The position numbers and the translations under genes are program-made. Below are positions 1-35,698 of a DNA stretch of 64,000 nucleotides, piece after piece. This DNA comes from a virus. Its lineage: Duplodnaviria > Heunggongvirae > Uroviricota > Caudoviricetes. Under the pieces are notes generated by a model, which was not told the DNA's origin, made no database searches, and saw only the letters and a list, made by a program, of their open reading frames with translations. The first letter of the stretch is position 1. The number at the start of each line of letters is the position of its first letter. The DNA lies in IMG/VR virus record IMGVR_UViG_3300003267_000376; one strand, given 5' to 3'.

Positions 1-589
1 CCAGCATCTGGCGAGTTACCAATTCCACGACCTGCCGCTGATGGTCATTCCGCCGCAGGGTGGGATGGTGGCGGATCTGAACTACGCGGCCAAGGCGGTG
101 CTCACCGACCCGACCGTGACCTATCTGGGCTTCGTCGGGGACGATCATCGCTTCCGCAGCTCCGGCTGGGATCGTTCCTTCCTCGACACGCTCACCGCCA
201 ATGGTGGCGGTTTCGCTTACGGCAATGATCTGTTCTGGCCGCACGGCGAGATTCCAACCCAGATTTTCGTCAGCGCCCACATCGTGACGGCGCTGGGGTA
301 TTTCGCTCTTCCGCAATGCAAGCATCTCTACGTCGACAACGTATGGCGCGAACTGGGGGAAGGTGCCAACGCCCTGTTCTACTTCCCGAACATGGTGATC
401 GAACACCTGCATCCAGCAGCTGGCAAGGCCGAGTGGGACGAGCAGTACCGCTTGGTGAATAGCGAGGAACGCTATGCCGCTGATCGACAGGCGTTCGAGA
501 CATGGCTGGCCACCAAAGCACCGGAGGATATCGAGATTGTCCGAAGCGCCATTGCTCGCTCCATTCTCGTTAACCGAGATCCAAGCTAA
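1..589 (+). CDS. glycosyltransferase-like protein, 5'-truncated at the window edge
   Basis: The ORF is open to position 1. It carries a DDH/DxD-like motif (FVGDDHRF) and the aromatic/hydrophobic pattern of a GT-A fold. It sits in a cluster with other sugar-modifying enzymes. Confidence 0.4.
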   Translation, partial: QHLASYQFHDLPLMVIPPQGGMVADLNYAAKAVLTDPTVTYLGFVGDDHRFRSSGWDRSFLDTLTANGGGFAYGNDLFWPHGEIPTQIFVSAHIVTALGYFALPQCKHLYVDNVWRELGEGANALFYFPNMVIEHLHPAAGKAEWDEQYRLVNSEERYAADRQAFETWLATKAPEDIEIVRSAIARSILVNRDPS

Positions 590-1331
590 AGGCGGCCCCG
601 TCTTCCCGAACACGATCCCGTTTGAGCACATCACCTTCGCCATCGTGGTGTGGAATGACCAAACCCGGCTGCATCAGCTACTGGACTACGTGCGGCCCTA
701 TTTCTCCACCCTCGCCGTGGTGGTGCAGCAGTCCGATGACAGCACGATGCGGGTGGCCAAGGAAATCGCCGACATCATCGCGGTCGATGCGCATCGGGGC
801 TACGGCGACGCCAGTTTCGGGCCCTTGCTGCTGCCGATGATCAAGACCGAATGGACGTTCAAGGTCGATGTCGACGAGTGGCCTTCGGTGCAGTTGTTGG
901 AGTCGCTGTCCAGTGCGACCTGGAGCTGTGAGCAGGACCAGCGCTTTCATGACGGCGCCTGGATCCCATTCCGCTCGAGCGTCGACGACATTGAATACGA
1001 GGAGCAGCACGGGCATCTGCGCCTGTTCCGCACCTCGCTGGGGTGGCCCGCCACCCTTCACAGCCGACCGATGACTTCGCGAACGCTGTACTGGCATACC
1101 GGGCATATCCGGCACGACCGGACGCTCGACGAAATGATGCAGGACTACCTGCGCTATTGGAATGTGGGGCGTGGCAACGCTGGTTGGGACGCCCACAACA
1201 AACTGATGATGTACCACGCCTGTGTCGGCACTGCCGAAAAGAAGGGGTGGGACTACGTCAGATCGTTTGATTGGTGGCCTCGCGTGGAGGCCATCGCCTT
1301 TGAGGAGTCGAAACCATGGCTGCAGCCCTAG
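474..1331 (+). CDS. family-2-like glycosyltransferase (GT-A fold)
   Basis: The N-terminal beta-strand ITFAIVVWND and the motif QQSDDSTMRVAKEIADI match a GT2 signature. The start is uncertain: ATG 474 overlaps the upstream gene by 116 nt in another frame, with no in-frame ATG afterwards. Confidence 0.6.
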   Translation: MPLIDRRSRHGWPPKHRRISRLSEAPLLAPFSLTEIQAKGGPVFPNTIPFEHITFAIVVWNDQTRLHQLLDYVRPYFSTLAVVVQQSDDSTMRVAKEIADIIAVDAHRGYGDASFGPLLLPMIKTEWTFKVDVDEWPSVQLLESLSSATWSCEQDQRFHDGAWIPFRSSVDDIEYEEQHGHLRLFRTSLGWPATLHSRPMTSRTLYWHTGHIRHDRTLDEMMQDYLRYWNVGRGNAGWDAHNKLMMYHACVGTAEKKGWDYVRSFDWWPRVEAIAFEESKPWLQP

Positions 1332-1612
1332 CAATCACGCCTGCGTCCGGGTCGATCACGGCCACGGTGTCGGTGTGCCGTATCAACGTGACCGGCGCGG
1401 ATCCGAACAAGGTCGATGGTAGCGAGAACCGCTACAAGATCGTCGCCTCGTGCACCGGTGTGGATGACCTCGTGAGCCACGAATTCAACGTGAATGGTGG
1501 CAAGCACGAGTGGAACAACCTGATCTTCCCCGAGGCGGGGAGCTGGACCCTGGATCTGGTGGACCTGTCTGATGACAGCGTGGCCGCGACCGCGGCGGTG
1601 ACGGTCGCCTAA
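1316..1612 (+). CDS. hypothetical protein
   Basis: 98-aa ORF with a GAGGAG RBS upstream, co-oriented with its neighbours. Confidence 0.45.
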   Translation: MAAALAITPASGSITATVSVCRINVTGADPNKVDGSENRYKIVASCTGVDDLVSHEFNVNGGKHEWNNLIFPEAGSWTLDLVDLSDDSVAATAAVTVA

Positions 1613-2209
1613 TTGTCCAGCCGACGCCGTCTGTATCCCGAGCAGGCTGTGGATTACCGCAGCCTCGCTCGCCATAACTCGGAGTTCACCGACCATGTCG
1701 GGCGAACCCTCGCTACGGCGGCGGCCATCGCCTTCACCCAACCCAAGACGGTCTGCGACCCCGCAGTCGGAGACGGCTCGATCCTCGATGCGGCCTATGC
1801 TCTGCACCCCTTCCAGCGGGCCTACGTGTCCGATCTGTCTGAACCGAATATCGAGCGTATCCATGGCAAGACGTGGCCCAAACAGGCAGCGGTTAAGGAC
1901 ATTACTCAGGCCATCGTGGATCTGCCGGAAAAGGTCGACACCTTGGTCCTTACAGAAATCCTGGAGCACTTGGAAGATCCCGATAGCGTGGTCGCCCAAG
2001 CCCGCCGCAAGGCGGACGTCCTCATCGCCTCCTCCCCAGTAGAGGAGCCGGATGGCATCAGCAACCCTGAGCATCTGTGGAGTTTCGGGCGGGACGGGTA
2101 CCAAGACATGCTGCGTGAAGGAGGGTGGATCCCGTTTAGCTACACCGAGATCGGCTTCCCGGGGGATTGGCGCTTGTATTACACCTTTCAGATATGGGTA
2201 GCACGATGA
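1613..2209 (+). CDS. class I SAM-dependent methyltransferase
   Basis: Motif I is VCDPAVGDGSILD and the LVLTEILEHLEDP motif is typical of type 11/12 methyltransferases. The start is TTG 1613 (GTG 1646 is the alternative). Confidence 0.7.
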   Translation: MSSRRRLYPEQAVDYRSLARHNSEFTDHVGRTLATAAAIAFTQPKTVCDPAVGDGSILDAAYALHPFQRAYVSDLSEPNIERIHGKTWPKQAAVKDITQAIVDLPEKVDTLVLTEILEHLEDPDSVVAQARRKADVLIASSPVEEPDGISNPEHLWSFGRDGYQDMLREGGWIPFSYTEIGFPGDWRLYYTFQIWVAR

Positions 2210-2313
2210 AGAAAGACTTCTGGGAGCTCATGTCGCTGATCGGCATCCCGGGCCTGATGTTGATCGCGGTGCTCTTCACCCTGACCTGGTTCCTAGCGGA
2301 GCAGCTGAAGTGA
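2206..2313 (+). CDS. small membrane protein (35 aa)
   Basis: The ATGA overlap with the upstream stop indicates translational coupling. The product has a single TM helix (MKKDFWELMSLIGIPGLMLIAVLFTLTWFLAEQLK). It is below the size cutoff of the ORF track. Confidence 0.35.
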   Translation: MKKDFWELMSLIGIPGLMLIAVLFTLTWFLAEQLK

Positions 2314-2501
2314 GTGAATCCATTCTGGTGCGCGCCATCGCTGCCGTCCTGAGCGTGGTGATCTGCGCTGGCATCGTGATGGTGCTGTGGAATTTCGTCT
2401 TTAGTCGTGCGATTGGCATTGGCGCCTTGGATTACTGGGCCAGCCTCGCGTTGGTGCTCATCCTGCGCTTCTGCTCACCGCCACGCTGGGAGAACACGTG
2501 A
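2310..2501 (+). CDS. small membrane protein
   Basis: A GTG start overlaps the upstream stop. Two hydrophobic helices are predicted. Confidence 0.4.
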   Translation: MSESILVRAIAAVLSVVICAGIVMVLWNFVFSRAIGIGALDYWASLALVLILRFCSPPRWENT

Positions 2502-3427
2502 AGGTTCTGATTACCGGCGCCGCAGGTTTCCTCGGTCGCCACTACACCCGCTATCACCTCGAGCAGGGGGACGAGGTGACCGCGGTTGATGATCTCTCCA
2601 ATGCCACCGAGCCAGAGTTCCCGATTACAGTGGCCGATGCCGGAGCGTACCTCCTCGATGGAACCCCTCATTTTGACCGTGCTTACCATTTTGCTGCTCC
2701 AGTTGGTGGACGACTGAAGATCGATCTCGACCCACTGTTCAATGCCGACTCATTACGTCTGGATTCGATCTTCTTCCGCTGGGCAGTGAATAACACCAAG
2801 GTCGCGATCTACCCTTCCAGCTCGGCCGTGTATCCGGTCTATCTACAGCAGGCCGACAATTTCTACCCGTTGCGGGAGGAGATGTTTGTTCCACGTGAAG
2901 CGACTTGGGGCACTCCTGATCAAATGTATGGGTTTACCAAACTGGTTGGCGAATTTCTGGCCTGGAAAGCCAGCGTATATGGACTATCCACGCTCTGCCT
3001 ACGACCCTTCAGCGGATACGGCGAAGGTCAGTCCTTTGAGTATCCCGTCCCCAGCATCGTCCGCCGCGCGCTCCGCGGCGACAACCCCATTGATGTCTGG
3101 GGACCAGGTGACCAGAGCCGCGATTTCATCCATGTGGAGGATCTGGTACGAGGAACTATGGCGCGCCTCAGCGCGGGGGTTCGCGGATATAACGCACTGA
3201 ACCTCGGTTCCGGGATCCCCACCACCTTCACCCAGGTGGCGGTCATCGCCGCCGAGCTGGTGGGCTACTCACCGCAGATTCGGCCGCAGCCGGATAAGCC
3301 AGTGGGGGTCATGCATCGTTATTGCGACCCGACCGAGATGCTGCGCTACTACCGGCCGCAGATCACCCTCCCGCAAGGGTTGCAGCGCGTGCTGGAGGAG
3401 GTTGACCGTGCCCCGGATCGTGAATGA
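2498..3427 (+). CDS. NAD-dependent nucleotide-sugar epimerase/dehydratase (SDR family)
   Basis: ITGAAGFLG is a Rossmann motif and YGFTK is the catalytic YxxxK. The GTGA overlap gives start coupling. Confidence 0.85.
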   Translation: MKVLITGAAGFLGRHYTRYHLEQGDEVTAVDDLSNATEPEFPITVADAGAYLLDGTPHFDRAYHFAAPVGGRLKIDLDPLFNADSLRLDSIFFRWAVNNTKVAIYPSSSAVYPVYLQQADNFYPLREEMFVPREATWGTPDQMYGFTKLVGEFLAWKASVYGLSTLCLRPFSGYGEGQSFEYPVPSIVRRALRGDNPIDVWGPGDQSRDFIHVEDLVRGTMARLSAGVRGYNALNLGSGIPTTFTQVAVIAAELVGYSPQIRPQPDKPVGVMHRYCDPTEMLRYYRPQITLPQGLQRVLEEVDRAPDRE

Positions 3428-4238
3428 CGGGCCGGCGCCCGATCTGGCGGTCTACACCATGCACAGCGAGGGAACCGACATTGGGACCATCGCGATTCCG
3501 GTGCGGGATCAAGTCAACGCCGCCACCACCACCAGCTTGGTGATGACTGATTACAGCTTCCTGCAGCAGGGCCAAACGATCGAGCGACTGATTGTGCAGG
3601 GCAGCGTGCTGACGCTGCAGCGCAACGAATGCATCCAGCGCATGAAGGGCGACTGGCTGTTGTTTATCGACGACGACATGGTCTGGGACCCGGACATCAT
3701 TGGTCGCTTGATCGCGACGCGCGATGAGCATGATCTGGACATGCTCGGCGCGCTCTGCTATCGGCGCAGTGCTCCGCATCAGCCCACCTTGTTCATGCGC
3801 GAGGGGCCGACCTACGGGCAGTACAACTACCTCGAACGATGGGATGACGACATCATCGAGGTCGACGCCACGGGGATGGCCTTCATCGTGATCCACAAGC
3901 GTGTCTTCGAGCGTATCGCTGGGACGGAGATGCCGCCCTACGATGTGCGCGTCGGCATGAAACCGCCCAACTTCTTCCGTTGGGAAGGCGCGCTGGGTGA
4001 AGATCTCCGGTTCTGTCAGGACGCCCGGGCGGCTGGCTGCCGGATCTGGGTCGACACCCGCCTGGAAATTGGCCATGTCGGCGAACGCGTCATCCGTCGC
4101 CGCGACTTCCTTCTTGAACATGCGTTTCGCGACGAACTCGAGCTTGATCGCCGCCGGCGACTGAATGACCGAATGAACCTCACCACCCTCGAACCTGACG
4201 AGGCGCTGAAGGAGCTTATGCATGGAATGGCACGGTGA
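3402..4238 (+). CDS. glycosyltransferase (GT-A fold, DxD)
   Basis: LLFIDDDMVWDPD is a DxD motif and GEDLRFCQDARAAGCRIWVD is present. TTG start 3402 has a GGAGGAG RBS 5 nt upstream. Confidence 0.75.
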   Translation: MTVPRIVNDGPAPDLAVYTMHSEGTDIGTIAIPVRDQVNAATTTSLVMTDYSFLQQGQTIERLIVQGSVLTLQRNECIQRMKGDWLLFIDDDMVWDPDIIGRLIATRDEHDLDMLGALCYRRSAPHQPTLFMREGPTYGQYNYLERWDDDIIEVDATGMAFIVIHKRVFERIAGTEMPPYDVRVGMKPPNFFRWEGALGEDLRFCQDARAAGCRIWVDTRLEIGHVGERVIRRRDFLLEHAFRDELELDRRRRLNDRMNLTTLEPDEALKELMHGMAR

Positions 4239-4629: not shown

Positions 4630-5399
4630 TGGCGCTGAAGTACCCCGTTGACAATGCTGTAGAAACCCAGGGTTGGGGCTCTTCGCCGCTGGCGGCCGAG
4701 CCGGCCATGTATTCCGATGGCAAGACCGCCTGGTGGAACCCGTATCCGGGAGCGAGCTTCTTCTGGCATTTCCATGCCGCGCTTGACATCGCTGCCCCCC
4801 AGGGCACTCCGATCTGGGCCTCCGAAGATGGGACGGTGATTGAGAGCTATTACGACAGCGTCAATGGCGGCGGCAATAAGGTCCGCATTCAGATTCGCCC
4901 CGGCATCAGCTACTGCTCGAACCACATGTTTAACCGCGCCGTCTCGGTCGGGCAGAAGGTGAAGCGTGGCCAACTCATCGGTCGCGTCGGCAGCACCGGC
5001 AACTCGACCGGTCCCCACAATCACTTCTGGGTGGGGATTGATGATGCGGTAGGCAGTCAGACCTGGCCGCGCCTGTTCAACCCCAAGCTGTTCTTCTACG
5101 GCGGGGCGCTGGCCAATGACGCCCGCATCCAGCCGCTGCAGCTGATCCCGTATGTCACGCTCAAGGGGCCGGGTATCAACATCCGCACCTCACCCGATCT
5201 CGATGTGGGCTCCTCGAATGTCTTCGCCACCAGTCAGGCCGATGGCATTTACCGCAACGGCAAGCGCCTCGGTCCGCTGTCCAAGCATTTCGAGTTCATG
5301 CGTAATGTAACGACCGATGACGGTCGCTTTGCCAAAGTTATCGCCTTTAATCGCAACCTGTACATCTACCGCGACTTGGTGGATTTCCATAAGTCGTAA
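4629..5399 (+). CDS. M23 family metallopeptidase (LytM domain) with C-terminal extension
   Basis: The motifs HAALDIAAPQGTPIWASEDGTV and GSTGNSTGPHNHF give the HxxxD...HxH zinc site. Confidence 0.85.
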   Translation: MALKYPVDNAVETQGWGSSPLAAEPAMYSDGKTAWWNPYPGASFFWHFHAALDIAAPQGTPIWASEDGTVIESYYDSVNGGGNKVRIQIRPGISYCSNHMFNRAVSVGQKVKRGQLIGRVGSTGNSTGPHNHFWVGIDDAVGSQTWPRLFNPKLFFYGGALANDARIQPLQLIPYVTLKGPGINIRTSPDLDVGSSNVFATSQADGIYRNGKRLGPLSKHFEFMRNVTTDDGRFAKVIAFNRNLYIYRDLVDFHKS

Positions 5400-5439: not shown

Positions 5440-8400
5440 ATGGCCATTACCCGGACTGCCAAAGGCACCAATACCAGTAAAACCTCAGGGACAACCCTGA
5501 CTCTCGCCAGCGTGTCTATGACCGCTGGCGATTTACTCGTTGTTTCGCTGGCTTACGACGACCAGACCCTCGACAGTGTGACCTGGGGCAGCGAAACGCT
5601 GACTCTCCAGACGGCTGTGCTCGGCGCCGGGGTGCGAACCAGGTTGGCATGGAAGGTTATCGCCAGTACCGGTACTCAAACCATTACCGCCACCTGGACC
5701 GCGAGCCTCACCGCTAAAGCGCTCGCCGCGTCGAGCTACCACTGCGATGTCGGCGGAACGACGCCAGCCGCCGGTGCTGAAGTCAACAACACCGGCACGG
5801 GCACCAGCGCCTCCACCGCTAACTCTAGTGCCATCGTGGGTGGCACGAACTCCATCCTGGCTGGCGTGGTTGGTACTGAAGGCCCCAGCGGTGATACGGC
5901 GGGCACCTGGTCCACACCGAATACCAACGGTCAGCGCGCGGGCACCACCGGTAACCCGGCCGCCAGTAACGTGACGGTCTCTGAGGCCTACACGCTAGGA
6001 CCAGCCGTAGGAAGTACCCCTGCCCTGTCGAAGACGGGCATGACCAGCCGCGACTGGGGTGCTGAGCTGCAAGCGTTCTACTGGTCTACCACGATTAGTA
6101 GTTCCTTCACGGCTAATGCGATTATTAAGGCGACTACGGCGGGGTCATTCACCGCCGACGCCGCGATAACGCTTATTACGTTCCCCATCACGACTAACGC
6201 GGTCATTAAGGCCACGGCTAGCGGCACATTCACGGCTAACGCCATCATCTTTCGAACGGTTGTTGGTTCACCAGGGCCCACGGTTGCCTATAAGACCTCG
6301 GTTAGCACTACAGGAACGCAAATCGATATTCCCCTCGGTACCCCTACCGTTGGTGATCAGCTGCTGATCGTGATCATGAGCGCCCAGGGCAGCGGTCTCA
6401 CCTGGGGATCGACGCCGAGTGGCTGGGTAACTCAGGATTCGACCAATCCCACGAGCACTAAGCCCGGCGCCAAGGTTATGTGGCGCACCGCGACCTCGGC
6501 CGACATCAATGCCACCGTGTCGGTGACGATCAGTTCGTCGTCACCAATGATGGCGGTCCTCGTGCACCTGAACCGCTATCAATGGTTCTCTGGACCGGCG
6601 ACCCTTATCACGACCCTGGTAGATACCACTTCGTCTTTTAGCCCGCCGACCTTCACACCAGACCCTGCTGAATATCGTGCTGCGTGGTGGTTCACCCTCA
6701 AGGACAACAATGAATCCGTAACCGTCCTCTCGGGCCCATTCATGGCCATCGGTGAGCTTAGTGACGGTAGTTGGCGCGCCGCGCTACATTGGGTATACCC
6801 CGGAGTTGTTGGTGGTCGTGCTGTCCCATTTTCACCTGTCGGCACCTTGCAGTGGTCGACCCCCGCAGATGCCCTCAGCTATGGCGTTGTGTTCGGTTGG
6901 ACCACGTCCGGATTCGTCACGGATGCTGTCCTCTCCAAAACGCAGAATGCGAATCTTACCGCCGACGCAGTTATTGCGGCTACTGGTGGATCATGGAACG
7001 CCAGTGTTCTCGCGACGGTAGCGACTGGCGTTGATTCTATGACGGTATCGTCTGGATCGATCACCGTCAATCCGAATCGGTTAATCGTGATCTTCACCGG
7101 TGTGCGCGCCAACACTCAGTCGGGCGATCCCACGATCGGCGGCACGCTCGGCCTGTCATTCTCGAAGGTCGACAGCACCTTTGGCACCGGTGCCTACTAC
7201 GGCATGTTCGTGGCACTGTCCGGTGCAGGCGGTACGGGCACGATCGTGGCCGATTACACCGCCACCGCCGATATCACCCCTGGTTCCGAGACGATGTTCG
7301 TCCTAGAGATCGATGGGGCGGATATTTCGGGGACCGCGCTCGGCGCGATCGTCCAGCACAATTCGAACAACGCCGGTTCATCGACTTCGTCGTCGGTCAC
7401 CCTCGGCGCTGCGGTTGACACCAACAACGCGGTCATCGCTGGAACCCAAGTGCGCGGTGTCAACGAAGACATCACGCCTGATACGGCCGACTCCTTCACC
7501 GAACTCCAAGATCAGGGCAATACCAGCCCGCAGAACCAGGAAGAGACCCAGTGGCGGGCCGGCGGTTTCACGGGAACCACAGTCACGGCCTCGTGGACCA
7601 CCTCGGCTGGTTACCGCATGATTGCGGCCGAGATCAAGAAATCCGGTGGCAGTACTGTCAGTGGCTCCTTCACGGCCAATGCGGTCATTAAGACGACGCA
7701 ATCGGCCAGTCTCACCGCCGATGCAGTCATCAAGGCTACCCAGTCAGCCTCTTTCACGGCTAACGCAGTTCTCTTCAAGACACAATCGCTTAGCTTCGCT
7801 GCTGACGCGATCGTGCTCAAGACGCAGAGCGCAACCTTCGCGGCCGATGGTGTCATCATGGCCACCATCAGCGGTTTCGTCACCGCCAGCGCGGTTCTTA
7901 AGGCTACGCTCAGCGCCAGCTTTACTGCGGACGCGATAGTCTTTAAGACGCAGGCGGCTTCATGTACGGCCGATGCCGTTCTTTTCAAGGCACAGGCCGC
8001 TAGCTTCACGGGTGATGCGTTTCTGCTGGCAGTGCGGAGCGGTTCATTCACTGCCGATGCGGTCGTCTTCAAGACACAATCGGCGTCCTTCGCCGCTGAT
8101 GCGGTCCTGTTCAAGACGCAGAGCGCATCACTCACCGCTGATGCGGTCGCCTCTAAGACGCAGTCTGCGACGTATACCGCAGATGCCGTCCTGCTACGAA
8201 CGCAGGCAGGGTCATTCAGCGCCGATGCCATTGTTCTGAGGACCCAGTCATCGACCTTTGCAGCCGATGCCATCATTCTGCGCACAATCACGTCGCTCAC
8301 TGTCGTCGACAAGTTCTACTTCCATGATGCCGCTACGAGTGACAGTGGCACGCTACCCAGTGGTCAGCTCAGCTCATACACCATCGATGGCAGTGGAACC

Positions 8401-10863
8401 GGCGCAACGACCAACCGTGCGATGGATGGCACCGTTGGCGCTGCTCAGGCTACTTCTGGCTCAGTTACGCATGCATCCCAGGTCGTTGGCTTCTTGCGGC
8501 GCTTTGTCAGCGCTCCGATGGCAGCCCAAACAATTAGTGGAACGGTAACGCTTTCCGGCTCGGCCGCTGGCAACCCGTCTGGGTTCACAGGCCAAGAGAT
8601 GTATGTGGCGGTCTGGCGCCCATTAACCGGTTCGTTGGTGGGAACGCTCTACGCCACCCAACAGCTAGAGTGGCAATCTTCGCTTGGTTCGGGTCAAAAG
8701 GCTGGCACCTCTCCGGCACGCTCTCTCTCATCGTTAGCTGTCGACGACGGTGACATCGTGATAGTCGAGGTTTATGTCCGGACCACGTCATCGGCCAATG
8801 CCACGGCAACGATGTTCTATGACGGCACGACCGAGAACTCGACGAGCAGTAATGCGTCGTACGTTCTCTTCTCGAATCCGATTAGTTTCGGGGGCGGGAT
8901 TGCGGCAGACGCCGTCATCGTTCGCACCACGGCGGCCAGCTTCACAGCCAACGCGGTCATTCTCGCCACGCAGTCCGCGACCTTCACCGCTGACGCGGTG
9001 CTGCTGAAGACCCAAAGCGCTTCGTTTGCCGCCGACGCGGTCATCTTCAAGACACAGACAGCCACCTTCACCGCCGATGCGGTGATCAAGGCGACGATCA
9101 GTGCCAGCTTCACTGCTGACGCGGTCGTGCTCGCCACGATTACGTCGTCCTTCTCCGCCGACGCAGTCATCAAGAAAGAACAGACCGCATCGTTCAATGC
9201 CGATGCAATAGTGCTCGCCACCCAGACGAGCAGCTTCACCGGCGACGCGATCGTCCTGAGGACTCAGACGGCCTCGTTCACGGGCGATACGGTCATCCAG
9301 GCCACTATCACATCTGCCTTCAGCGCCGATGCCATCGTGCTGGCCACGATCAGCAGTGCCTTCAGCGCTGACGCCTGGATTCAGCCGACCTTCACCGCCG
9401 ACGCCATCCTGCTCAAGACGCAGGCCGGATCGTTCTCTGCCGATGCGACGCTCATGCCGTCGTTCACCACAGATGCGATCGTGCTCAAGACGCAGACCGC
9501 CGCGATCACGGCGGATGCGGTGCTGATGCCAAGTGTTACGGCTGACGCGATCGTGTTGGCCACGATCAGCGGTTCCCTAACGGCCGATGTCTTTATCGCT
9601 GGTGTGGGGGTCGCGGCCTTTAGCGCCGATGCGATTATCCAGGCTACGGTCACCGGTTCTTACAGCGCTGACGCGGTTGTTACGGCCACCGTAACAAGCG
9701 CGCTGACGGCTGATGCCGTGGTGCTGGCCACTACGGAAAAAATTCTTGGCGCAGACTCTATACTTTTGGCTACCGAGTCTGCTACAATCACCGCCGACGC
9801 GGTCCTGCTGCAGACGTGGACTACGTCATCCGCCGCCGATGCGGTGTTGCAAGCGACTGCGAGCGCAAGCTTCACCGTTGACGCGGTTCAACTGAAGACG
9901 ACCGAGGCTACATTCACTGCTGATGCGGTGATCCTCACCAGCCGAACGGACGGCTTCAGTGCAGACGGTGTACTGCTCTCCACGTACACCGCGACCACGA
10001 CGGCTGATGCGATCGTCCTTGCGACGATCGGAGGCAGCTGGACTGCGGACGCTGCCATTCAGCGCACACAGTCCGCTTCGTTCCCCGGCGACGCTGCCAT
10101 TCAGCGCACGACAGAAGCTGCCTTCACCGCTGACGCGGTGCTCAATGCGACCCAGAGCGCGAACTTCACCGGCAACGCGGTCATCGCTGCTGCTGGAGTC
10201 TCCACCGGTTCGTTTACTGCAGATGCCGTCCTCAAGTCGACGGGTGCAGCGAGTTTCGCCGCTGACGCCATTAAGCGTAGCACGTCGGTCAATTCCTTCG
10301 CCAGCGACGCCCATATCAAGGTCGTCCAGCAGGCTTCTCTGGCCGCTGACGCAATCCTGCGGGCTTCCCCGAGTGCCTCGCTGGCAGCTGCTGCGATCCT
10401 GCGCCGAACCACCGAAAGTGCGATCACCGCCGACAGCATCGTGCGAACCACGAGCTCGGCAACCTTTACCGCAGATGGGTGGTTGCGCAGGGTCGTAGCG
10501 ACCTCCTTCACGGCCGATGCCACGCTGTTTGCAGCCGGGGCGGCTTCGTTTAGCGCCGATGCCATCCTCGGGGTCGCGACCAGTGCGAGCTTCACCGCCG
10601 ATGCCCAGCTCACCGGACAGTCGGCGGCCAGCATTACGGTCGACGCCTTCATCCAGCCGTACTTCACGGCCCGCGCAATCCTCATTCACCCGACGCATCG
10701 GCGTCGGTTTAGGACCACAGTGACCGCGGCCATGCATGGTGCCGCCCTGGCAGGCGAGTTCCACGCCGCGGCCCTGGCCGCTTCTACCCATGGCGCTGGC
10801 CTCGCGGCTGGTGCGCACGCTGCGGCACTAGCCGCTGATATCAGCCGCACTGGGCTGAGCTAG
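5440..10863 (+). CDS. giant repeat-containing fibre/decoration-like virion protein (1807 aa)
   Basis: Long ORF with a GGAG RBS. The N-terminus is Thr/Ser/Gly-rich. About 60 copies of a 14-aa unit (consensus TQSASFTADAVLFK) occur in three arrays. Confidence 0.8.
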   Translation: MAITRTAKGTNTSKTSGTTLTLASVSMTAGDLLVVSLAYDDQTLDSVTWGSETLTLQTAVLGAGVRTRLAWKVIASTGTQTITATWTASLTAKALAASSYHCDVGGTTPAAGAEVNNTGTGTSASTANSSAIVGGTNSILAGVVGTEGPSGDTAGTWSTPNTNGQRAGTTGNPAASNVTVSEAYTLGPAVGSTPALSKTGMTSRDWGAELQAFYWSTTISSSFTANAIIKATTAGSFTADAAITLITFPITTNAVIKATASGTFTANAIIFRTVVGSPGPTVAYKTSVSTTGTQIDIPLGTPTVGDQLLIVIMSAQGSGLTWGSTPSGWVTQDSTNPTSTKPGAKVMWRTATSADINATVSVTISSSSPMMAVLVHLNRYQWFSGPATLITTLVDTTSSFSPPTFTPDPAEYRAAWWFTLKDNNESVTVLSGPFMAIGELSDGSWRAALHWVYPGVVGGRAVPFSPVGTLQWSTPADALSYGVVFGWTTSGFVTDAVLSKTQNANLTADAVIAATGGSWNASVLATVATGVDSMTVSSGSITVNPNRLIVIFTGVRANTQSGDPTIGGTLGLSFSKVDSTFGTGAYYGMFVALSGAGGTGTIVADYTATADITPGSETMFVLEIDGADISGTALGAIVQHNSNNAGSSTSSSVTLGAAVDTNNAVIAGTQVRGVNEDITPDTADSFTELQDQGNTSPQNQEETQWRAGGFTGTTVTASWTTSAGYRMIAAEIKKSGGSTVSGSFTANAVIKTTQSASLTADAVIKATQSASFTANAVLFKTQSLSFAADAIVLKTQSATFAADGVIMATISGFVTASAVLKATLSASFTADAIVFKTQAASCTADAVLFKAQAASFTGDAFLLAVRSGSFTADAVVFKTQSASFAADAVLFKTQSASLTADAVASKTQSATYTADAVLLRTQAGSFSADAIVLRTQSSTFAADAIILRTITSLTVVDKFYFHDAATSDSGTLPSGQLSSYTIDGSGTGATTNRAMDGTVGAAQATSGSVTHASQVVGFLRRFVSAPMAAQTISGTVTLSGSAAGNPSGFTGQEMYVAVWRPLTGSLVGTLYATQQLEWQSSLGSGQKAGTSPARSLSSLAVDDGDIVIVEVYVRTTSSANATATMFYDGTTENSTSSNASYVLFSNPISFGGGIAADAVIVRTTAASFTANAVILATQSATFTADAVLLKTQSASFAADAVIFKTQTATFTADAVIKATISASFTADAVVLATITSSFSADAVIKKEQTASFNADAIVLATQTSSFTGDAIVLRTQTASFTGDTVIQATITSAFSADAIVLATISSAFSADAWIQPTFTADAILLKTQAGSFSADATLMPSFTTDAIVLKTQTAAITADAVLMPSVTADAIVLATISGSLTADVFIAGVGVAAFSADAIIQATVTGSYSADAVVTATVTSALTADAVVLATTEKILGADSILLATESATITADAVLLQTWTTSSAADAVLQATASASFTVDAVQLKTTEATFTADAVILTSRTDGFSADGVLLSTYTATTTADAIVLATIGGSWTADAAIQRTQSASFPGDAAIQRTTEAAFTADAVLNATQSANFTGNAVIAAAGVSTGSFTADAVLKSTGAASFAADAIKRSTSVNSFASDAHIKVVQQASLAADAILRASPSASLAAAAILRRTTESAITADSIVRTTSSATFTADGWLRRVVATSFTADATLFAAGAASFSADAILGVATSASFTADAQLTGQSAASITVDAFIQPYFTARAILIHPTHRRRFRTTVTAAMHGAALAGEFHAAALAASTHGAGLAAGAHAAALAADISRTGLS
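6090..6260 (+). repeat. short array of the 14-aa (42-nt) coding repeat
   Basis: The reiterated unit is SFTANAIIKATTAGSFTADAAI... Confidence 0.6.
7650..8290 (+). repeat. array of ~15 imperfect 42-nt in-frame tandem repeats
   Basis: FTADAV is spaced every 14 aa in the translation. Confidence 0.85.
8900..10690 (+). repeat. array of ~45 imperfect 42-nt (some 30-nt) in-frame tandem repeats
   Basis: ADAV/ADAI recurs with 14-aa (occasionally 10-aa) spacing. Confidence 0.85.
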
Positions 10864-10872
10864 GAGATCGCC

Positions 10873-11190
10873 GTGTTGCGCTTCGTTACCGGCAATACCA
10901 AGCCATACCTCAACGGCACGATCTTCCTCGAGGAGGATCCCAGCACGCCGGTGAACCTCACCGGCTGCACGGTGCGAATCCAGATGCGGAAGGCCGATGA
11001 CCGCCGCTTCACGGTGAACCAGGAGGTCACCACCGTGACCGACGCGCTCAACGGCCAGGTGCAGTACCAGTGGGGCGAGAACGACCTCAATACCCCGGGG
11101 ATCTATCAGGTCCAGTTCGAGGTTACCTATCCCGATGACTCGACCCAGACCACCTCATCGCCGATTGATATTGAGGTGCGGCGCGCATGA
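10873..11190 (+). CDS. hypothetical protein
   Basis: A GTG start follows an AGGAG RBS. The 105-aa product is beta-rich. Confidence 0.5.
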   Translation: MLRFVTGNTKPYLNGTIFLEEDPSTPVNLTGCTVRIQMRKADDRRFTVNQEVTTVTDALNGQVQYQWGENDLNTPGIYQVQFEVTYPDDSTQTTSSPIDIEVRRA

Positions 11191-12576: not shown

Positions 12577-12595
12577 GCTCGGAAGGGGGCACCAG

Positions 12596-13078: not shown

Positions 13079-13084
13079 TTGATC

Positions 13085-13113: not shown

Positions 13114-13145
13114 CTTACCCATTAGCCAACCGGCGTGGAGGTGTA

Positions 13146-14414
13146 ATGACCAAGGTCTTGTGGATTGCAGATGGGGGCGCGCATACCGGGTTTGCTCGGG
13201 TCACGCATGCCATCGGCGATCGCCTCGTGGAGAAGTACGACTACGACATCCACTGCCTCGCGACCAACTACCAGGGCGATTACTACCCGACCAAGATCAA
13301 GCTCTATCGGCCGAACTCACTGGTGGGCACCGACGTGTTCGGCATGAGCCGCTTCATCGAGCTCCTCGCCAAGGTCGAGCCAGACGTGGTGGTGATGGTC
13401 AACGATCCGTTCATCATCATCAAGGAGCTGTTCGACAACAAGTGGGACACCGAGCGCGTCATGCTGCGCTATCGGCCGATCTTGACCTACATCCCGGTCG
13501 ACGGCCACAACCATCCGCCCGCCTGGCAGGTGCTGCAGAGCGTGACCAATGAGGTGGCCATGTCACGCTTCGGGCAGGCGTCGATGCCAGGCTCGCAGCT
13601 CGTCTATCACGGCGTCGATACCGACCTGTACTACCCCGTCAGTGCCAAGCGACCAATCAAACTGTCGAATGGCAATACCGTGACCACGAAGCGGGAGTGC
13701 AAGCAGCAGTTCGGTTATGACCCGGACAGCTTCCTCATCCTGCGAGTCGATCGTAACAGCGCACGCAAGGATTTCCCGGCCTCGTGGAAAGCGCTCGTCC
13801 CGGTCATGCAGCGGCATTCGGACATCATCGTCCACTTCCATTGCCAGGGCAAGAACGACATCTACGGCGTGGATATGAACGCGATGTTCAGTCGCGATCG
13901 GGAGACCGAGAAGCGCTTCTTCTTGCCGGATTTCCTCAATACCTTCATCGGCTGGAGTGACGAGGACCTGAACGCGCTCTACAACGCGGCAGACCTATTC
14001 ATCTCCAATAGCCGGGGTGAAGGCTTCGGCCTGACCATCGCCGAGGCCCTCGCCTGCAATGTACCGGTGATTGCCCAGAACGTCTCCGCCATCCCTGAGG
14101 TGGTGGGGCCGGGTGGCATTCTGATTGATCCCGTCCGCGAAATCACTGTGCCGTCAGGTCAAGACCTGTGGCTCAGCGATATCGGGGCGTTTAGTGAGGC
14201 CATTGAATCCCTCTATCTCTCTCGTCGGAAGCGGCGGGAATACGGGGATGCTGGCCGGGAGCATGTCACGTCGACCTTCAGCTGGGACGACGCTGCTGAC
14301 AAGTTCCATTACTTCATTGACGCACTCGCGAGAGGAACGGCGTCAGAAGGAGAAGTTGCAAATGGAGCGCAAGTTTCAGATCCTCAGCGGACTGCTGAAG
14401 GCGTACGAGTCTGA
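13146..14414 (+). CDS. GT4 (GT-B fold) glycosyltransferase
   Basis: SRGEGFGLTIAEALACNVPVIA matches the EX7E motif. A GGAGGTG RBS is upstream. Confidence 0.8.
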   Translation: MTKVLWIADGGAHTGFARVTHAIGDRLVEKYDYDIHCLATNYQGDYYPTKIKLYRPNSLVGTDVFGMSRFIELLAKVEPDVVVMVNDPFIIIKELFDNKWDTERVMLRYRPILTYIPVDGHNHPPAWQVLQSVTNEVAMSRFGQASMPGSQLVYHGVDTDLYYPVSAKRPIKLSNGNTVTTKRECKQQFGYDPDSFLILRVDRNSARKDFPASWKALVPVMQRHSDIIVHFHCQGKNDIYGVDMNAMFSRDRETEKRFFLPDFLNTFIGWSDEDLNALYNAADLFISNSRGEGFGLTIAEALACNVPVIAQNVSAIPEVVGPGGILIDPVREITVPSGQDLWLSDIGAFSEAIESLYLSRRKRREYGDAGREHVTSTFSWDDAADKFHYFIDALARGTASEGEVANGAQVSDPQRTAEGVRV

Positions 14415-31477: not shown

Positions 31478-34400
31478 ATGGCATCTCCTAGCATTGCCTC
31501 CACAGGGACTAGTCAGCAGACCACTGACCAAACATCGCACACCATGGCGATGCCATCTGGCATCCAGTCCGGCGATCTGCTGGTCGCAATCTTCGTTACT
31601 GATGGTGTGCCAAGTATCTCAGGATGGCCAGCGGGATGGACGTCATTCCCACGAATTAACGGTGGATCGAATAACACCAACAGTTCGCAGGTGGCCTATA
31701 AGTTCGCCGATGGGACCGAGTCGAACTTCACCCTAACGACCAGTGCCGCCGAGACATCGATCTCCCGTTGCTTTCGTATTACCGGGCATGCTGGTTCAAC
31801 TAGACCGCCCCTAGTACGCCCCTCTTCAGATTCAGGGCCAGCATCGGTTGTTCCCAAAGTTGAAGCATGGGAGTGGTCGCAACCACAAGACATTCTTTCG
31901 ATCGTTGCTGTTGGTTGGGAGAACACAACTCCTACGCCCACTCCCAGCGGCTACACCAACAACGTCAATAGTTCGACTGGCGGGGCCTCGGGAACGGGCA
32001 TCCGGGTTGAGACCCAAGCAATCTCTGGTTTTACTGGCTCAGAAAACCCCGCCGACTACACCACTGGCAGTGGTGATCGCGCAATCTGGACCATTCTTAT
32101 TCCTTCGGATTCCAGCGCTCCCGATCTGACCTTTCCCATTGCTCGAAACTGGTTCGAGAAGACCTCCGGTAGCAGCTCTAGCGTCAATATTACAATCCCA
32201 CGGCAGAGTGTTAGCGGTGACATTCTATTCGCTGCGATTGGTCTCGCTACCAATGTCACCATTTCCTCGGGATTGCCGAGCGGCTGGACCACACAGGTAA
32301 GCGTAGCGGGGGGTGGATCAGGCGGCGAACGCATGTACTTCCTGTGGAAGGTGTGCGACGGGTCTGAAACCGACTTCACGCTCACCATGAGCGGTTCCTC
32401 AGCCTACTCGACGCTATCGGGCGCCGTTCTCAACGCTCAGGATGTCGTTTCATCGGCCACCGCCACCGGTGGCGCTAACGCAAACCCCAATCCCCCGAAC
32501 CTAAACGCCATCGGTCACCTATGGGTCGCCGAGATGCAGCATGAGGGACGTACCGTCTCCTCATACCCGACCAACTACACGCACCGCCAGGAAAGCCCAC
32601 AGCTGACCACGGCCAGTATTGCACTCGCCTTCCGCCAACTCAGCGCTAACAGTGAAGACCCAGGCACGTATACCGACAGCGGTTCATCATTCTGGACGGC
32701 TGCCACCATCGCCTTTTTGCGACCATCCACCACGGCGTCCATCACGGCCGATGGTGTCATCCAAGGATTGACGCTGTTCACTGCTGATGCGGTCATCCAG
32801 GCCAGTGTTGCTGGATCACTGACAGCAAACGCCGATCTACTCGCCACGAGCACGGCCAGCTTCAGCGCCGATGCACTGATTGCCGCCACGATCACCAGCA
32901 GCATTAGCGGCGATGCGGTCATCCTCGCGACCGTTGCTCAGAACCTAGCTGGCGACGGTATTGTCCTCACTACCACATCGGCTAGCCTGACAGCGGACGC
33001 CGCCTTCTCCTCGACGGTGTCCGTGGAGGGCAATATCACTGCTGATGCGGTGATCCTTGCCACACTAGCTGCATCGGTAGCTGGCGATGCCGTGCTGCGT
33101 ACCACAAGCCCCGGCTCGATCACGGCTGATGGAATCGTACGTGTCACCACAGCAGCCTCCTTTAGTGTCGATGCGGTCGTACCCCCGTACTTCGTCGCCG
33201 ATGCGGTCCTTCTCGGCCTCACGCACTTCACCGCTGACGCGATCGTGCGGCTGGTCGCCTCAGCCTCCTTCACGGCCGATGCGGTCGTCTTCTTCGAACT
33301 ATACGAGTTCACGTTCACCGCGGACGCGCTAATCTTTGGCATCGTCTGGTTCGATGACTTCAATCGTGCCAATGAGAACCCGTTGGGTGATCCATATCGC
33401 CATATGCTCGGCGATGAAGCGCAGATTATCTCCAATGAGCTGGTCCAGCCTTACGACACGATCAACAGTTTGACCACCTTCAGCGGATATCGCGGTTATG
33501 CCGTTGTTCCCGCCATTAGCATCAACCAGATCGACATCTTCATTCCAGCCTCGCCGGACAACAATTTCTACCTTGAGATCGATAATCGCGGCATTTTGGG
33601 AAGTGATGGCCAATGGTACGGCCAGTTCTGGTGGATGTTCTGGGATAGCGGTAGCGACTTTTTGATCGCTTCGGACAGCCTTAACGAAACAGTCACGCTG
33701 ACGCTGAACACCTGGTACACCATCAAGGTGATGCATGGGGACAACGATCACCCCACACGATTGAAATACTGGCCGCGCGCTACCACTGAACCATCCGCGT
33801 GGCAGGTTGAGGTGGCCAACTCGTTCTCTTACGCAACCGAGCCCTTCTCCGATCAATTGGGCTTGTTCTTGGGTAGTGGCGACCCGACTGATACGCGAGC
33901 CGACAACTTCCTCATCGCTTCCACCGAGAGCGGTGCGTTCGTAGGCTTTGGGTCCTTGACGGCCGCCGCTGTCCTGTTCAAGACCCAGGTCTTTGCTGGG
34001 GTTAATCCAGATGGACCGGAGCCGTATGCAGTCAGTACGGGTACGGCTAATGGGTTGGGCGGTTCACTCAGTTTCTTGAACCCGCCGGGCGCCGTGGTGG
34101 GTGACTTTGCCGTCGTGATCGGCGCCATTACTGGTGCAGCGACCACGAATCAAATCGGTGGGGTCGGCGGTAGTCTGAGTGACACGATTTTTACGAAAGC
34201 AGGCTTCTGGACCCCATCCAACTCTAACCTGACGTTTGCCGTCTTTTATGCCACCGTAACAGCCGACTTCTTCGGTGGCTGGCCATCGATCAGTTGGTCG
34301 TGGTCGTCTGGATCGAGCTTCCGGGCCGCGGTGTTGCTGGTAATACGCCGTACCCAGCATTTCGTACGGAACGTCACGCCCTATTTCGATACCACCAGTA

Positions 34401-35698
34401 CTGACCAACAGACCATTCCGGCTGGAACCGCCGAGCTTGCCTTCGATAATAGCTTGGCCATCCTTGGATTCGGCTCTGCCACCACCGGGGTCACCTCGTT
34501 CCTTCCTCCCATCAATGCCGTGGAATGGGCGGATGTCAATGCCACCAATGGGTTTACCCATGTGGCCCTCGAGGTGGCGCTCTCACCGCAATTTGCTGGT
34601 AGCACACCAGCCTGGACAGCAGATTCGCAAGGTGCCAACACGGGGACCTACGCCGTCATTGTGGAGGTTCCCACCATCGCGGGGCTCACTGCGGACGCTT
34701 ACCTGAAAGGTAATGCCTTCACGCTGGATGCCTATCTCATCCCAGATCCTAATCAGACGTACCCGGTCATCTTCGAAGACCGCTTCGATGATCGGATCAC
34801 GACCAATGGCTGGGGCGGCGTGTGGCAACCCACCCAGCTCGATAACGCCGGGCTCACGGCGGATGGCACCGCTGGGGTGAACACTGCCGATGCAACCTAC
34901 AGTCTGACGGGGTATCCGTTGGTCGGCGCCTATGCCAGCTACGCCTTCGACCTGAAGTTCGTCACGCGCAGCACGTTCTCGTTTATCCGCCTCGAAAGCA
35001 ATGATCACACTGGCCTATCGCTGCAATTATTCATCAATGGCGCAGGGGGCGTCATTCTGAACGGCGTCAGCGGCAGCTGGGCCGACGTTCCCAACCAGTG
35101 GTTCTCGGTGCTGGTCAACATCTTCCCCGATCGAGCCGATGTCTATCTCTGGCCGCGCGGCACGGCGCAGCCGGGTGTGCGCACCATTGGCGCCGCCAAC
35201 ATCGTGTCGACGTTCTTCGAGACCGAGCTCGACATCGCGGCACCGAATGGTGATGTGCGGATCGACAATTTTGTTGTGGCATCGCTGGTCGGTACGTGGC
35301 AACGCCGGTATCTCGTCTTTGGCGATGCCATCGTCAAACGAACGATGACCACCCATGCCGTATTCGGATTTCCGGTCGACAACACCATCCTCTGCGAGGC
35401 CGAAATCGCGCGTGGCTTCAAGGCCGATGCAGTCGTCACCAATGCCACCCCCCGCACCGTCACCGCCAATGCGGTGCTGGTGACGTATTTCCTGTTCCAC
35501 GCCGATGCCGTGCTACATGACGACACCCGGGTACAGCATGCCCGCAGTGGGCCTGACCACACTGGCGTCGACTACGAGCTGGTGCACACCCTTGCCGCCT
35601 CGATCGGGTTCAACCCGGTCTATCTGGCGGGGACCAATCTGCGCGATCTGTTGATCGCCATCGACGAGCGGCTCAGCGAGCTGGAAGCGTCGCAATAA
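31478..35698 (+). CDS. tail fibre / receptor-binding protein with repeat array and two ConA-like lectin domains
   Basis: The 1406-aa ORF has 14-aa repeats at roughly aa 420-620. Two regions (around 33330-33930 and 34750-35290) have ConA/LamG-like patterns (FDDF...W, DNFLIAS/DNFVVAS). Confidence 0.7.
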   Translation: MASPSIASTGTSQQTTDQTSHTMAMPSGIQSGDLLVAIFVTDGVPSISGWPAGWTSFPRINGGSNNTNSSQVAYKFADGTESNFTLTTSAAETSISRCFRITGHAGSTRPPLVRPSSDSGPASVVPKVEAWEWSQPQDILSIVAVGWENTTPTPTPSGYTNNVNSSTGGASGTGIRVETQAISGFTGSENPADYTTGSGDRAIWTILIPSDSSAPDLTFPIARNWFEKTSGSSSSVNITIPRQSVSGDILFAAIGLATNVTISSGLPSGWTTQVSVAGGGSGGERMYFLWKVCDGSETDFTLTMSGSSAYSTLSGAVLNAQDVVSSATATGGANANPNPPNLNAIGHLWVAEMQHEGRTVSSYPTNYTHRQESPQLTTASIALAFRQLSANSEDPGTYTDSGSSFWTAATIAFLRPSTTASITADGVIQGLTLFTADAVIQASVAGSLTANADLLATSTASFSADALIAATITSSISGDAVILATVAQNLAGDGIVLTTTSASLTADAAFSSTVSVEGNITADAVILATLAASVAGDAVLRTTSPGSITADGIVRVTTAASFSVDAVVPPYFVADAVLLGLTHFTADAIVRLVASASFTADAVVFFELYEFTFTADALIFGIVWFDDFNRANENPLGDPYRHMLGDEAQIISNELVQPYDTINSLTTFSGYRGYAVVPAISINQIDIFIPASPDNNFYLEIDNRGILGSDGQWYGQFWWMFWDSGSDFLIASDSLNETVTLTLNTWYTIKVMHGDNDHPTRLKYWPRATTEPSAWQVEVANSFSYATEPFSDQLGLFLGSGDPTDTRADNFLIASTESGAFVGFGSLTAAAVLFKTQVFAGVNPDGPEPYAVSTGTANGLGGSLSFLNPPGAVVGDFAVVIGAITGAATTNQIGGVGGSLSDTIFTKAGFWTPSNSNLTFAVFYATVTADFFGGWPSISWSWSSGSSFRAAVLLVIRRTQHFVRNVTPYFDTTSTDQQTIPAGTAELAFDNSLAILGFGSATTGVTSFLPPINAVEWADVNATNGFTHVALEVALSPQFAGSTPAWTADSQGANTGTYAVIVEVPTIAGLTADAYLKGNAFTLDAYLIPDPNQTYPVIFEDRFDDRITTNGWGGVWQPTQLDNAGLTADGTAGVNTADATYSLTGYPLVGAYASYAFDLKFVTRSTFSFIRLESNDHTGLSLQLFINGAGGVILNGVSGSWADVPNQWFSVLVNIFPDRADVYLWPRGTAQPGVRTIGAANIVSTFFETELDIAAPNGDVRIDNFVVASLVGTWQRRYLVFGDAIVKRTMTTHAVFGFPVDNTILCEAEIARGFKADAVVTNATPRTVTANAVLVTYFLFHADAVLHDDTRVQHARSGPDHTGVDYELVHTLAASIGFNPVYLAGTNLRDLLIAIDERLSELEASQ
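32740..33330 (+). repeat. array of 42-nt in-frame repeats (same family as 7650-10690)
   Basis: TADAVI/TADGIV units at 14-aa spacing. Confidence 0.75.

Follow-up and report, generated by a model that had tools for sequence, protein, structure and literature searches.

Record IMGVR_UViG_3300003267_000376 of the IMG/VR database, a Caudoviricetes sequence analyzed here as a single stretch of 64,000 nucleotides (nt) ("the window"), encodes a giant, modular, fibre-like protein of 1807 amino acids (aa). It contains 62-63 copies of a 14-residue unit with the consensus ASFTADAVILKTQS, termed here the FTADA repeat; ~0.9 units would be expected in shuffled sequence. The kind of protein is a known one, a phage fibre with a β-helical shaft and lectin-like domains; the repeat family itself is previously undescribed. 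It is not rare, being widespread in uncultivated phages and viromes. The giant gene is probably that of an accessory virion fibre or adhesin with β-solenoid spacers, carried by an uncultivated long-tailed phage.

A giant gene built on a 14-residue repeat

The gene is an open reading frame (ORF) on the plus strand (5440..10863) that starts with ATG, and a GGAG motif is present 9 nt before this codon. The N-terminal sequence MAITRTAKG is common to ~60 homologues of the protein, and because these also begin with it, the start can be considered fixed. A preliminary description of this DNA had reported a 5.4-kb ORF of 1807 aa with ~60 copies of a 14-aa (42-nt) repeat, and both statements are borne out.

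Units were located with a position-specific scan whose matrix was built from 50 seed units. Written by position, the consensus is A-S-F-T-A-D-A-V-I-L-K/A-T-Q-S, in which position 6 is almost always Asp or Asn and is flanked by Ala on both sides (positions 5 and 7); the tightest positions are F3, A5, D/N6, A7 and the next two, which are aliphatic. The spacing between units of the giant protein is almost always exactly 14 aa, a regularity that is visible already when the xDA core is used as the anchor, and over 129 FTADA proteins the unit-to-unit distance is 14 aa in 1,824 of ~2,500 cases. The preliminary description had listed three arrays, at ranges that closely match those of arrays 1, 2 and 3 in Table 1, but had overlooked a fourth, the two-unit array 1b. 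The shortened units of 10 residues that it mentioned (P-x-F-T-A-D-A-h-h-x) are real. Three of them alternate with 14-aa units at residues 1306-1377 (DNA positions 9355-9570), creating a 24-aa super-unit (14+10) that Tandem Repeats Finder (TRF) calls as a 72-nt period, and one further 10-residue unit, IQPYFTARAILI, ends array 3.

As had been proposed, the copies are diverged at the DNA level: mean pairwise identity among units is 52% for nt and 44% for aa, and TRF detects only short stretches in the gene, at 72-81%. No repeated exact k-mers of 24 nt or longer were found within 5440..10863. Identity also differs by codon position, amounting to 55%, 64% and 36% at positions 1, 2 and 3, respectively. 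Thus, the divergence of the units, the codon-position pattern and the absence of exact repeats of this length indicate an old repeat that is maintained by selection on the protein; the array also poses no ambiguity for an assembler. FTADA is therefore a selected protein repeat rather than an assembly artefact, in line with the preliminary description. That the region is repetitive is the sole point in favour of an artefact, or of a spurious ORF running over a collapsed or expanded DNA repeat, and the likelihood of either is negligible. Besides the unit divergence and the signature of selection, the GC content at third codon positions of the giant gene agrees with that of other window genes, and arrays of comparable length occur in hundreds of independent homologues. 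For example, the terminal arrays of P0001, P0002, P0003 and P0005 contain 37-45 units (here and below, P00xx denotes homologous proteins from the protein search and L0xx denotes fetched loci).

Predicted structure of the repeat arrays

An AlphaFold2 (AF2) monomer model of residues 1152-1745 was made with an alignment of ten arrays. In the model 11 residues of each FTADA unit (A-V-I-L-K-T-Q-S-A-S-F) form a strand and the remaining three, T-A-D, a turn; consequently, the conserved Asp/Asn and the flanking Ala residues sit in the turn. The solenoid is self-consistent, with strand and turn in register for ~35 units. The mean predicted local distance difference test score (pLDDT) is 63.9, the means of 10-residue blocks range from 63 to 84 in the regular 14-aa stretches, and confidence drops below 50 precisely over the three 10-aa units. 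A Foldseek search of the PDB with the array model gave no match with E <= 0.001; the neighbours found at high root-mean-square deviation (rmsd) are left-handed or narrow rolls, namely GlmU, the ryegrass ice-binding protein and the YadA and UspA1 heads. With moderate support, the array is predicted to be a right-handed β-solenoid. The preliminary description had suggested a β-solenoid or fibre shaft and had named structure prediction as a check; the strand-turn, solenoid-like model and its Foldseek neighbours make that suggestion plausible.

Judged from the alternation of residues, the odd positions (A1, F3, A5, A7, I9, A/K11 and I/Q13) would face the core, and the even positions (S2, T4, D6, V8, L10, T12 and S14) would face outward. 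The outward faces would then be lined by Thr and Ser and bear a small aliphatic stripe, through which chains could oligomerize side by side. The 14+10 super-unit fits two units per coil, as does a weak 28-aa period seen in P0001 and P0002; when identity and hydrophobicity were correlated as a function of lag across 1,120 units, neither one nor two units per coil was clearly favoured. In the mechanism proposed here, each unit would give one β-strand and a tight Asx-type turn (T-A-D/N), and stacked units would build a narrow right-handed β-solenoid. With a rise of 4.8 Å per coil, the repeats together would measure ~30 nm if each coil held one unit and ~15 nm if it held two. The short arrays (2-15 units) would serve as rigid spacers between four globular β-sandwich domains, and the 41-unit array would form the main shaft.

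It is also conceivable, if somewhat unlikely, that the repeat forms an intertwined trimeric fibre resembling a triple β-helix or triple β-spiral, in which case the AF2 monomer would be misleading. Most phage fibres are trimeric, the N-terminal domain of the giant protein (D1) is similar to jelly rolls of the TNF/C1q type, as a rule trimers, the periodic C-terminal block could serve as a registration element, and the mean pLDDT of the array is modest. The triple β-spiral of adenovirus and reovirus likewise has a short repeat (a 15-residue pseudo-repeat), a shaft with a globular head, and loops of varying length. However, each repeat of a triple β-spiral consists of two strands plus a conserved Gly/Pro turn, and the fibre is an obligate intertwined trimer, whereas FTADA has a period of 14, one conserved strand-turn (F-T-A-D-A-V-I) and a conserved Asp/Asn, lacks a conserved Gly or Pro, and is modelled by AF2 as a single-chain solenoid that holds its register. 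In addition, single-chain β-helices can trimerize side by side, so that a trimer needs no intertwining.

Globular domains and the C-terminal region

Four globular, all-β domains (D1 to D4) alternate with the arrays (Table 1). Residues 1-215 fold as a confident jelly roll, with a pLDDT >95 over most of the domain, and the weak structural neighbours of this model include phage receptor-binding heads and TNF/C1q-like trimers. The N-terminus is thus not the low-complexity Thr/Ser/Gly tract that the earlier wording implied. The first 400 residues are indeed enriched in these residues (41% Thr, Ser and Gly versus 34% for the whole protein), but to call them "extremely" rich was an overstatement. D1 is strongly conserved among its homologues, which are mostly stand-alone proteins of 230-310 aa. 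In L006, a contig of a metagenome-assembled genome (MAG; positions 9932-13800), one gene encodes D1 alone and the next, a separate gene, encodes a 1052-aa protein with two LamG domains and 22-aa repeats, while in P0008 (L004, 9259-13500) D1 and the LamG/22-aa-repeat part are fused in one gene. These gene layouts are a clear case of fusion or fission between L006 and L004, and because the parts are separate in one locus and joined in the other, D1 is a mobile module. The shaft repeat attached to D1 also varies. It is the 14-aa FTADA repeat in this window, P0001, P0002 and P0025, a different 14-aa repeat in P0012, a 20-aa repeat in P0007, P0009 and P0010, and a repeat of 22-23 aa in P0008. The genes that flank D1 homologues received no functional names from PHROGs.

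No family assignment was detectable for D2, D3 or D4 in Pfam or NCBIfam. Homologues hold LamG, GH16, DNRLRE-like and other lectin-like domains at the inter-array positions, and by analogy with these, the globular domains are likely to be glycan-binding modules. At the other end of the protein, the His/Ala-rich repeats that the preliminary description had noticed are confirmed as four 9-aa units (H-[GA]-A-[AG]-L-A-[AG]-x-x) within the last 64 residues.

A large family of viral proteins

Database searches gave no relationship to a described repeat family. The giant protein has only a sub-threshold, chance match in Pfam (OB_RNR_1st, E 0.067), no match in NCBIfam, and weak matches to three "unknown function" families in PHROGs (best E 0.0022). 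Sequences in the PDB gave nothing below E 0.1, either with phmmer and the full protein or with hmmsearch and the array and D1 profiles. Among 50,697 GenBank phage records, megablast found no DNA match to the window, and tblastn found no match to the giant protein, the capsid protein, D1 or a second, 1406-aa FTADA protein encoded in the window. The window, a segment of a tailed-phage genome, has no near relative among cultured phages. Because tblastn with the SEG filter on readily finds arrays in 45 fetched loci, the absence of FTADA from GenBank phages is taken to be genuine. Literature searches for a 14-residue phage fibre repeat, or for strings of FTADA/FTANA-type motifs, returned only irrelevant papers. 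The preliminary description had not recognized the repeat from described phage fibres, and the match to a characterized repeat family that it named as grounds for abandoning its view did not appear in any of these databases.

A word-indexed protein search returned only 13 relatives. An exhaustive HMMER search of 1.84 billion cluster representatives with a ten-array profile returned 1,814 proteins at E <= 1e-3 (each a cluster at 50% identity), 1,074 at E <= 1e-10 and 414 at E <= 1e-30. The 150 matches with the highest scores are between 450 and 3,448 aa long, and for the ten top family members no informative name was found, the only label being "hypothetical protein". At the DNA level, a degenerate pattern covering two adjacent FTADA units is present in 38 stretches in ~30 IMG/VR contigs, several of which hold two or more separate FTADA genes. 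In 185,579 species genomes the same pattern occurs 8 times, and only one occurrence is a true array; the other matches, including that in Azospirillum sp. RU38E, are not true FTADA arrays. The lone true array (L014, JAFCCK010000001.1) lies on a 39.8-kb contig of a "Candidatus Iainarchaeum" (DPANN) MAG. Probably the contig is viral and was placed in the MAG by binning; it is also present in IMG/VR as IMGVR_UViG_3300033145_002134 (L052). Thus, with 38 IMG/VR stretches versus a single true array in the species genomes, the FTADA family is essentially viral.

A second FTADA protein in the tail-fibre slot

The 1406-aa protein, whose gene occupies the tail-fibre slot of the window, has ~15 FTADA units, with a main array at residues 420-624 (DNA positions 32735-33349) plus isolated units. 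It also contains GDLLV-type domains and jelly-roll-like domains of the type "DDFNR...KxW..g..EP..W". FTADA proteins hold the tail-fibre slot in P0013/L003, P0005/L002, L046 and L049 as well. Since the tail-slot protein carries the units, FTADA is a building block of proteins encoded at the site of receptor-binding fibres. From its sequence, the 1406-aa protein is predicted to be a paralogous second fibre of the same phage, and with this second fibre of the same repeat in the tail-fibre slot, the phage probably carries two fibre sets for attachment to the host surface. Only the paralogue is encoded where a tail fibre is expected, in the tail module after the tape measure; the giant protein is nevertheless elongated and has modules (FTADA arrays and GDLLV-type domains) in common with the fibre-slot proteins. 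Homology among the GDLLV-type domains was suggested by eye but was not demonstrated, as profile alignments of D1 to D2/D3 and to the N-terminal part of the 1406-aa protein reached low probabilities (2-11%).

A conserved module with head genes

Four genes separate the giant gene from the prohead protease gene. The preliminary description had placed the giant gene upstream of the head genes rather than with the tail fibres. The gene does precede those for protease and capsid, but the contrast is misleading because the tail-slot gene contains the same units. A string of genes for an FTADA fibre, p105 (a small Ig-like protein of 105 aa in the window, with 38-54% identity across loci), the glycosyltransferase GT4, prohead protease and capsid protein recurs across the fetched loci. 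It is present in nine IMG/VR loci (L018, L019, L024, L032, L039, L040, L042, L044 and L047) and in the contexts of P0003 and P0010, whole or in part depending on the extent of the locus, with protease and capsid seen where the locus reaches far enough. The fibre-p105-GT4-protease-capsid module is thus conserved in at least 11 independent loci. This module, the tail-slot FTADA gene and the co-occurrence of C-terminal mini-repeats with an Ig-like gene had all been overlooked in the preliminary description. The small downstream genes of L001, L002, L004 and L006, at 17-26% identity, were not counted as p105 homologues. P0003 is preceded by a cassette of methyltransferase, epimerase, GT2 and 134-aa genes that is also found in the window, and in the accessory-fibre explanation the sugar-modification genes count as part of the module.

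The fibres of this module end in four to five mini-repeats of ~9 residues (pattern h-x-A/G-x-h-x-x-x-x), which are missing from the tail-slot fibres. C-termini with mini-repeats of 8-10 aa are found in the fibres of L018, L032, L039, L040, L042 and L044 and in P0003, P0004, P0006 and P0010. P0010 combines its 20-aa shaft repeat with a mini-repeat C-terminus and has a BppU_N gene downstream. P0008 has a different C-terminal domain and no p105 gene detectable downstream. Because the one has both features and the other neither, the mini-repeat C-terminus and p105 go together. In contrast to this shared end, the N-terminal domains of the head-module fibres differ between phages. The window has all the features that define this fibre group: a repeat shaft, four to five 9-aa mini-repeats, a BppU_N-like gene, GT4, protease and capsid.

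Comparison with known fibres and adhesins

The single-chain, right-handed β-helical adhesins of autotransporter and two-partner-secretion systems (Ag43, TibA, EtpA and HMW1), like phage tailspikes, have coils of ~19-25 residues with three strands. The FTADA unit, in contrast, has 14 residues and no sequence similarity to these proteins, and its arrays are interrupted by globular domains. Autotransporters also require a C-terminal β-barrel, which the giant protein does not have. The YadA/UspA1 heads and the ryegrass ice-binding protein, which have 14-15 residues per coil, are left-handed rolls, and their rmsd to the FTADA model is 8.6-10 Å. The YadA head does share a 14-residue repeat with FTADA. 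However, its Hep_Hag/YadA_head motif, which is of the SVAIG type and differs from the FTADA consensus, gave no Pfam match in the giant protein, and neither a left-handed roll nor a C-terminal membrane anchor was found there.

In the HFTV1 turret, T4 Hoc, phi29 gp8.5 and the appendages of 7-7-1 and phiCbK, a large carbohydrate-binding or fibrous protein gives a reversible first contact. HFTV1 turrets are composed of a small base protein and a carbohydrate-binding head protein and have been proposed to make the first reversible contact (PMC12494034), and phage 7-7-1 has flagellum-binding capsid fibres (PMC12796354) whose genes are still to be assigned. Like the HFTV1 pair, the FTADA fibre has a small partner, the Ig-like p105, and the two are encoded in the head/packaging module. 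No sequence or fold match was found between the FTADA fibre and capsid appendages or head fibres; for 7-7-1, the comparison awaits its genes.

A parallel to the fibre-p105 pair is present in the haloarchaeal myovirus HRTV-25 (L055, MZ334521.1, 2605-7645). Here gp7, a 1569-aa protein with LamG, is followed by gp8 (~110 aa, annotated as a BppU N-terminal domain), which is 37.7% identical to p105 (E 9e-9). The gp7 gene lies between the small and large terminase genes, with portal and protease genes nearby. Unlike the giant protein, gp7 has S/T/A/G-rich repeats and no FTADA, full-length tblastn of the GenBank phages found no similarity between the two, and both HRTV-25 proteins are uncharacterized. 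Other p105 homologues are located between the terminase and portal genes of HGTV-1 and, in roseophage CRP-6, after two putative tail-fibre genes and before the capsid gene.

Function of the giant protein

As an accessory fibre or adhesin, the giant protein would supply an additional or first reversible contact with the host surface, and its C-terminal 9-aa mini-repeats, together with p105, may mediate oligomerization or docking. The label "virion-associated", given in the preliminary description, is a reasonable inference from the context. Several points weigh against this explanation. The variable N-termini of the head-module fibres point to no virion anchor, and since the protein's own globular domains have no detectable family, glycan binding is proposed by analogy only. 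The AF2 confidence is moderate, the alignment behind it being shallow and partly made of the repeats themselves, and a single chain was modelled although phage fibres are mostly trimeric.

A more specific version of the accessory-fibre explanation, possible but doubtful, is a head or neck fibre that is anchored on the capsid or collar by the mini-repeats and p105 and directs its N-terminal domains outward to make the first reversible contact. It accords with the position of the gene in the packaging/head module in at least 11 loci, with the p105-like genes between terminase and portal in HGTV-1 and beside terminase in HRTV-25, with a C-terminus and p105 that are conserved while the N-termini vary, and with the precedents of capsid turrets made of two proteins, the head being carbohydrate-binding (PMC12494034), and of capsid fibres that bind flagella (PMC12796354). 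However, gene position is weak evidence for location in the virion, and the strong conservation of D1 would be odd for a distal, host-specific tip. In addition, the tail-slot fibre has the same repeat and GDLLV-type domains, the p105 homologue of CRP-6 lies downstream of annotated tail-fibre genes, and BppU_N is known from a baseplate protein. These last observations speak instead for a tail-associated side fibre that, as a further receptor-binding fibre, docks on the baseplate or tail in the manner of the 1406-aa paralogue and whose gene lies by chance in a variable cargo region between portal and protease, an arrangement that can be entertained only tentatively. In such a fibre, p105 would serve either as a BppU-like adaptor or as a downstream assembly factor; small genes right after fibre genes, such as lambda Tfa and T4 gp38, often encode assembly or tip proteins. 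The head-module fibre of L019 also begins with domains that resemble the N-terminal part of the tail-slot fibre (26% over 416 aa). Against a side fibre, the C-termini of head-module and tail-slot fibres differ, p105 never adjoins the tail-slot copies in the fetched loci, and the tight, conserved linkage is with head genes and not with tail genes.

A location outside the virion is improbable. A protein that acted on the host envelope alongside the glycosyltransferases and M23 peptidases encoded nearby, for instance to exclude superinfection or modify the surface, would explain why the gene is found among those for GT2, GT4, an epimerase, a metallophosphoesterase and two M23 peptidases. However, inspection of the N-terminus (MAITRTAKGTNTSK) by eye shows no obvious hydrophobic stretch of the signal-peptide kind, proteins of the tail-fibre slot use the same repeat, the architecture is typical of fibres and adhesins, and the gene is co-oriented with the structural genes and lies among them.

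The accessory-fibre explanation can be carried further, to a model that is unlikely to hold as a whole. Fibre, p105 and GT4 would form a self-contained "head-side appendage" cassette of a large uncultivated phage clade, with a distant haloarchaeal counterpart. In this cassette p105 would dock the mini-repeats on the capsid or collar, the glycosyltransferases would decorate the Thr/Ser face of the solenoid, and the glycosylated capsid fibre would contact the host or matrix first, independently of the tail fibre. Glycosylation of virion proteins is reported for mycobacteriophages, and by way of speculation, the flanking glycosyltransferases might glycosylate virion proteins here. Capsid glycosylation has also been suggested from the two glycosyltransferase genes of a phage (PMC11256854).

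Other features of the window

The coordinates of the giant gene, its parts and the surrounding genes are collected in Table 1.

Table 1. Features of the window, in order of position (single numbers are gene starts)
Feature	Position	Strand	Remarks
Sugar-modification cassette	474..4238	+	GT2-like, methyltransferase-like, NAD epimerase, GT2
GT2-like	474	+	
Methyltransferase-like ORF	1613	+	Unscanned; positional equivalents in L057/L058 have Methyltransf Pfam matches
NAD epimerase	2498	+	
GT2	3402	+	
135-aa ORF	4222	+	
M23 peptidase	4629-5399	+	Small, stand-alone
Giant fibre-like gene	5440..10863	+	D1, array, D2, array, D3, array, D4, long array, C-terminal mini-repeats
D1, jelly roll	5440..6099	+	N-terminal, aa 1-220
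FTADA array 1	6100..6264	+	aa 221-275, 4 units; position-specific scan
D2, globular	6265..6906	+	aa 276-489; GDxLLxV-type motif; no Pfam match
FTADA array 1b	6907..6990	+	aa 490-517, 2 units
D3, globular	6991..7662	+	aa 518-741
FTADA array 2	7663..8292	+	aa 742-951, 15 units, every spacing exactly 14 aa
D4, globular	8293..8892	+	aa 952-1151; Ser/Thr-rich; no family match (Pfam, NCBIfam)
FTADA array 3	8893..10668	+	aa 1152-1743, 41 scored units, three 14+10-aa super-units
His/Ala mini-repeats	10735..10842	+	aa 1766-1801, four of 9 aa, within 64-aa C-terminal region
p105	10873..11190	+	105 aa, small, Ig-like; Pfam BppU_N 1.4e-10, Rib 3.7e-6
Metallophosphoesterase	11344	+	
M23 peptidase	12563-13078	+	Small, stand-alone
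GT4 glycosyltransferase	13146..14414	+	"Conflict-system" type, just before prohead protease; Pfam, synteny
Prohead protease	14125	+	
Major capsid protein	15547	+	Adaptor and neck genes after
2072-aa ORF	20581-26799	+	Tape-measure position
911-aa protein	26799-29534	+	C-terminal M23 domain; after tape measure
511-aa protein	29534	+	
130-aa protein	31073	+	
1406-aa FTADA protein	31478..35698	+	Tail-fibre slot, after tape measure and the 911-, 511- and 130-aa genes

The sugar-modification cassette and GT4 lie inside the structural operon, are syntenic in L004, L039 and L058, and may glycosylate the virion. Three separate M23 domains are present in this one phage, two in small genes that flank the fibre module and one in the 911-aa tail protein. 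The ORF of 2072 aa at the tape-measure position matched nothing in PHROGs; under the tape-measure ruler rule of ~1.5 Å per residue, it implies a tail of ~300 nm. Searching the window by tblastn with L004 and L006 proteins detected no homologue of terminase or portal; in relatives, these genes are located just upstream of the equivalent region. The region from 36000 to 64000, mostly on the minus strand, is the early and replication region, with genes for, among others, SPFH/Band_7, ERF recombinase, PD-(D/E)XK nuclease, an AAA ATPase and a fragment of a C-5 cytosine methylase. No tRNA genes are present in the window.

Implications

Fibres and receptor-binding proteins set the host range of phages, and they are the least annotated part of viral dark matter. 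The FTADA proteins form a large family that is missing from Pfam, NCBIfam, the PDB and every searched genome of a cultured phage, and an FTADA profile would at once annotate hundreds of giant "hypothetical" genes in viromes. The 14-residue unit would be among the shortest known β-solenoid coils, used here as a modular spacer between lectin-like domains. Together, the conserved linkage of the giant gene to genes for an Ig-like partner, a glycosyltransferase and head proteins and the presence of a tail-slot copy provide a system in which to ask whether a phage has two independent attachment organelles, and whether its virion fibres are glycosylated.

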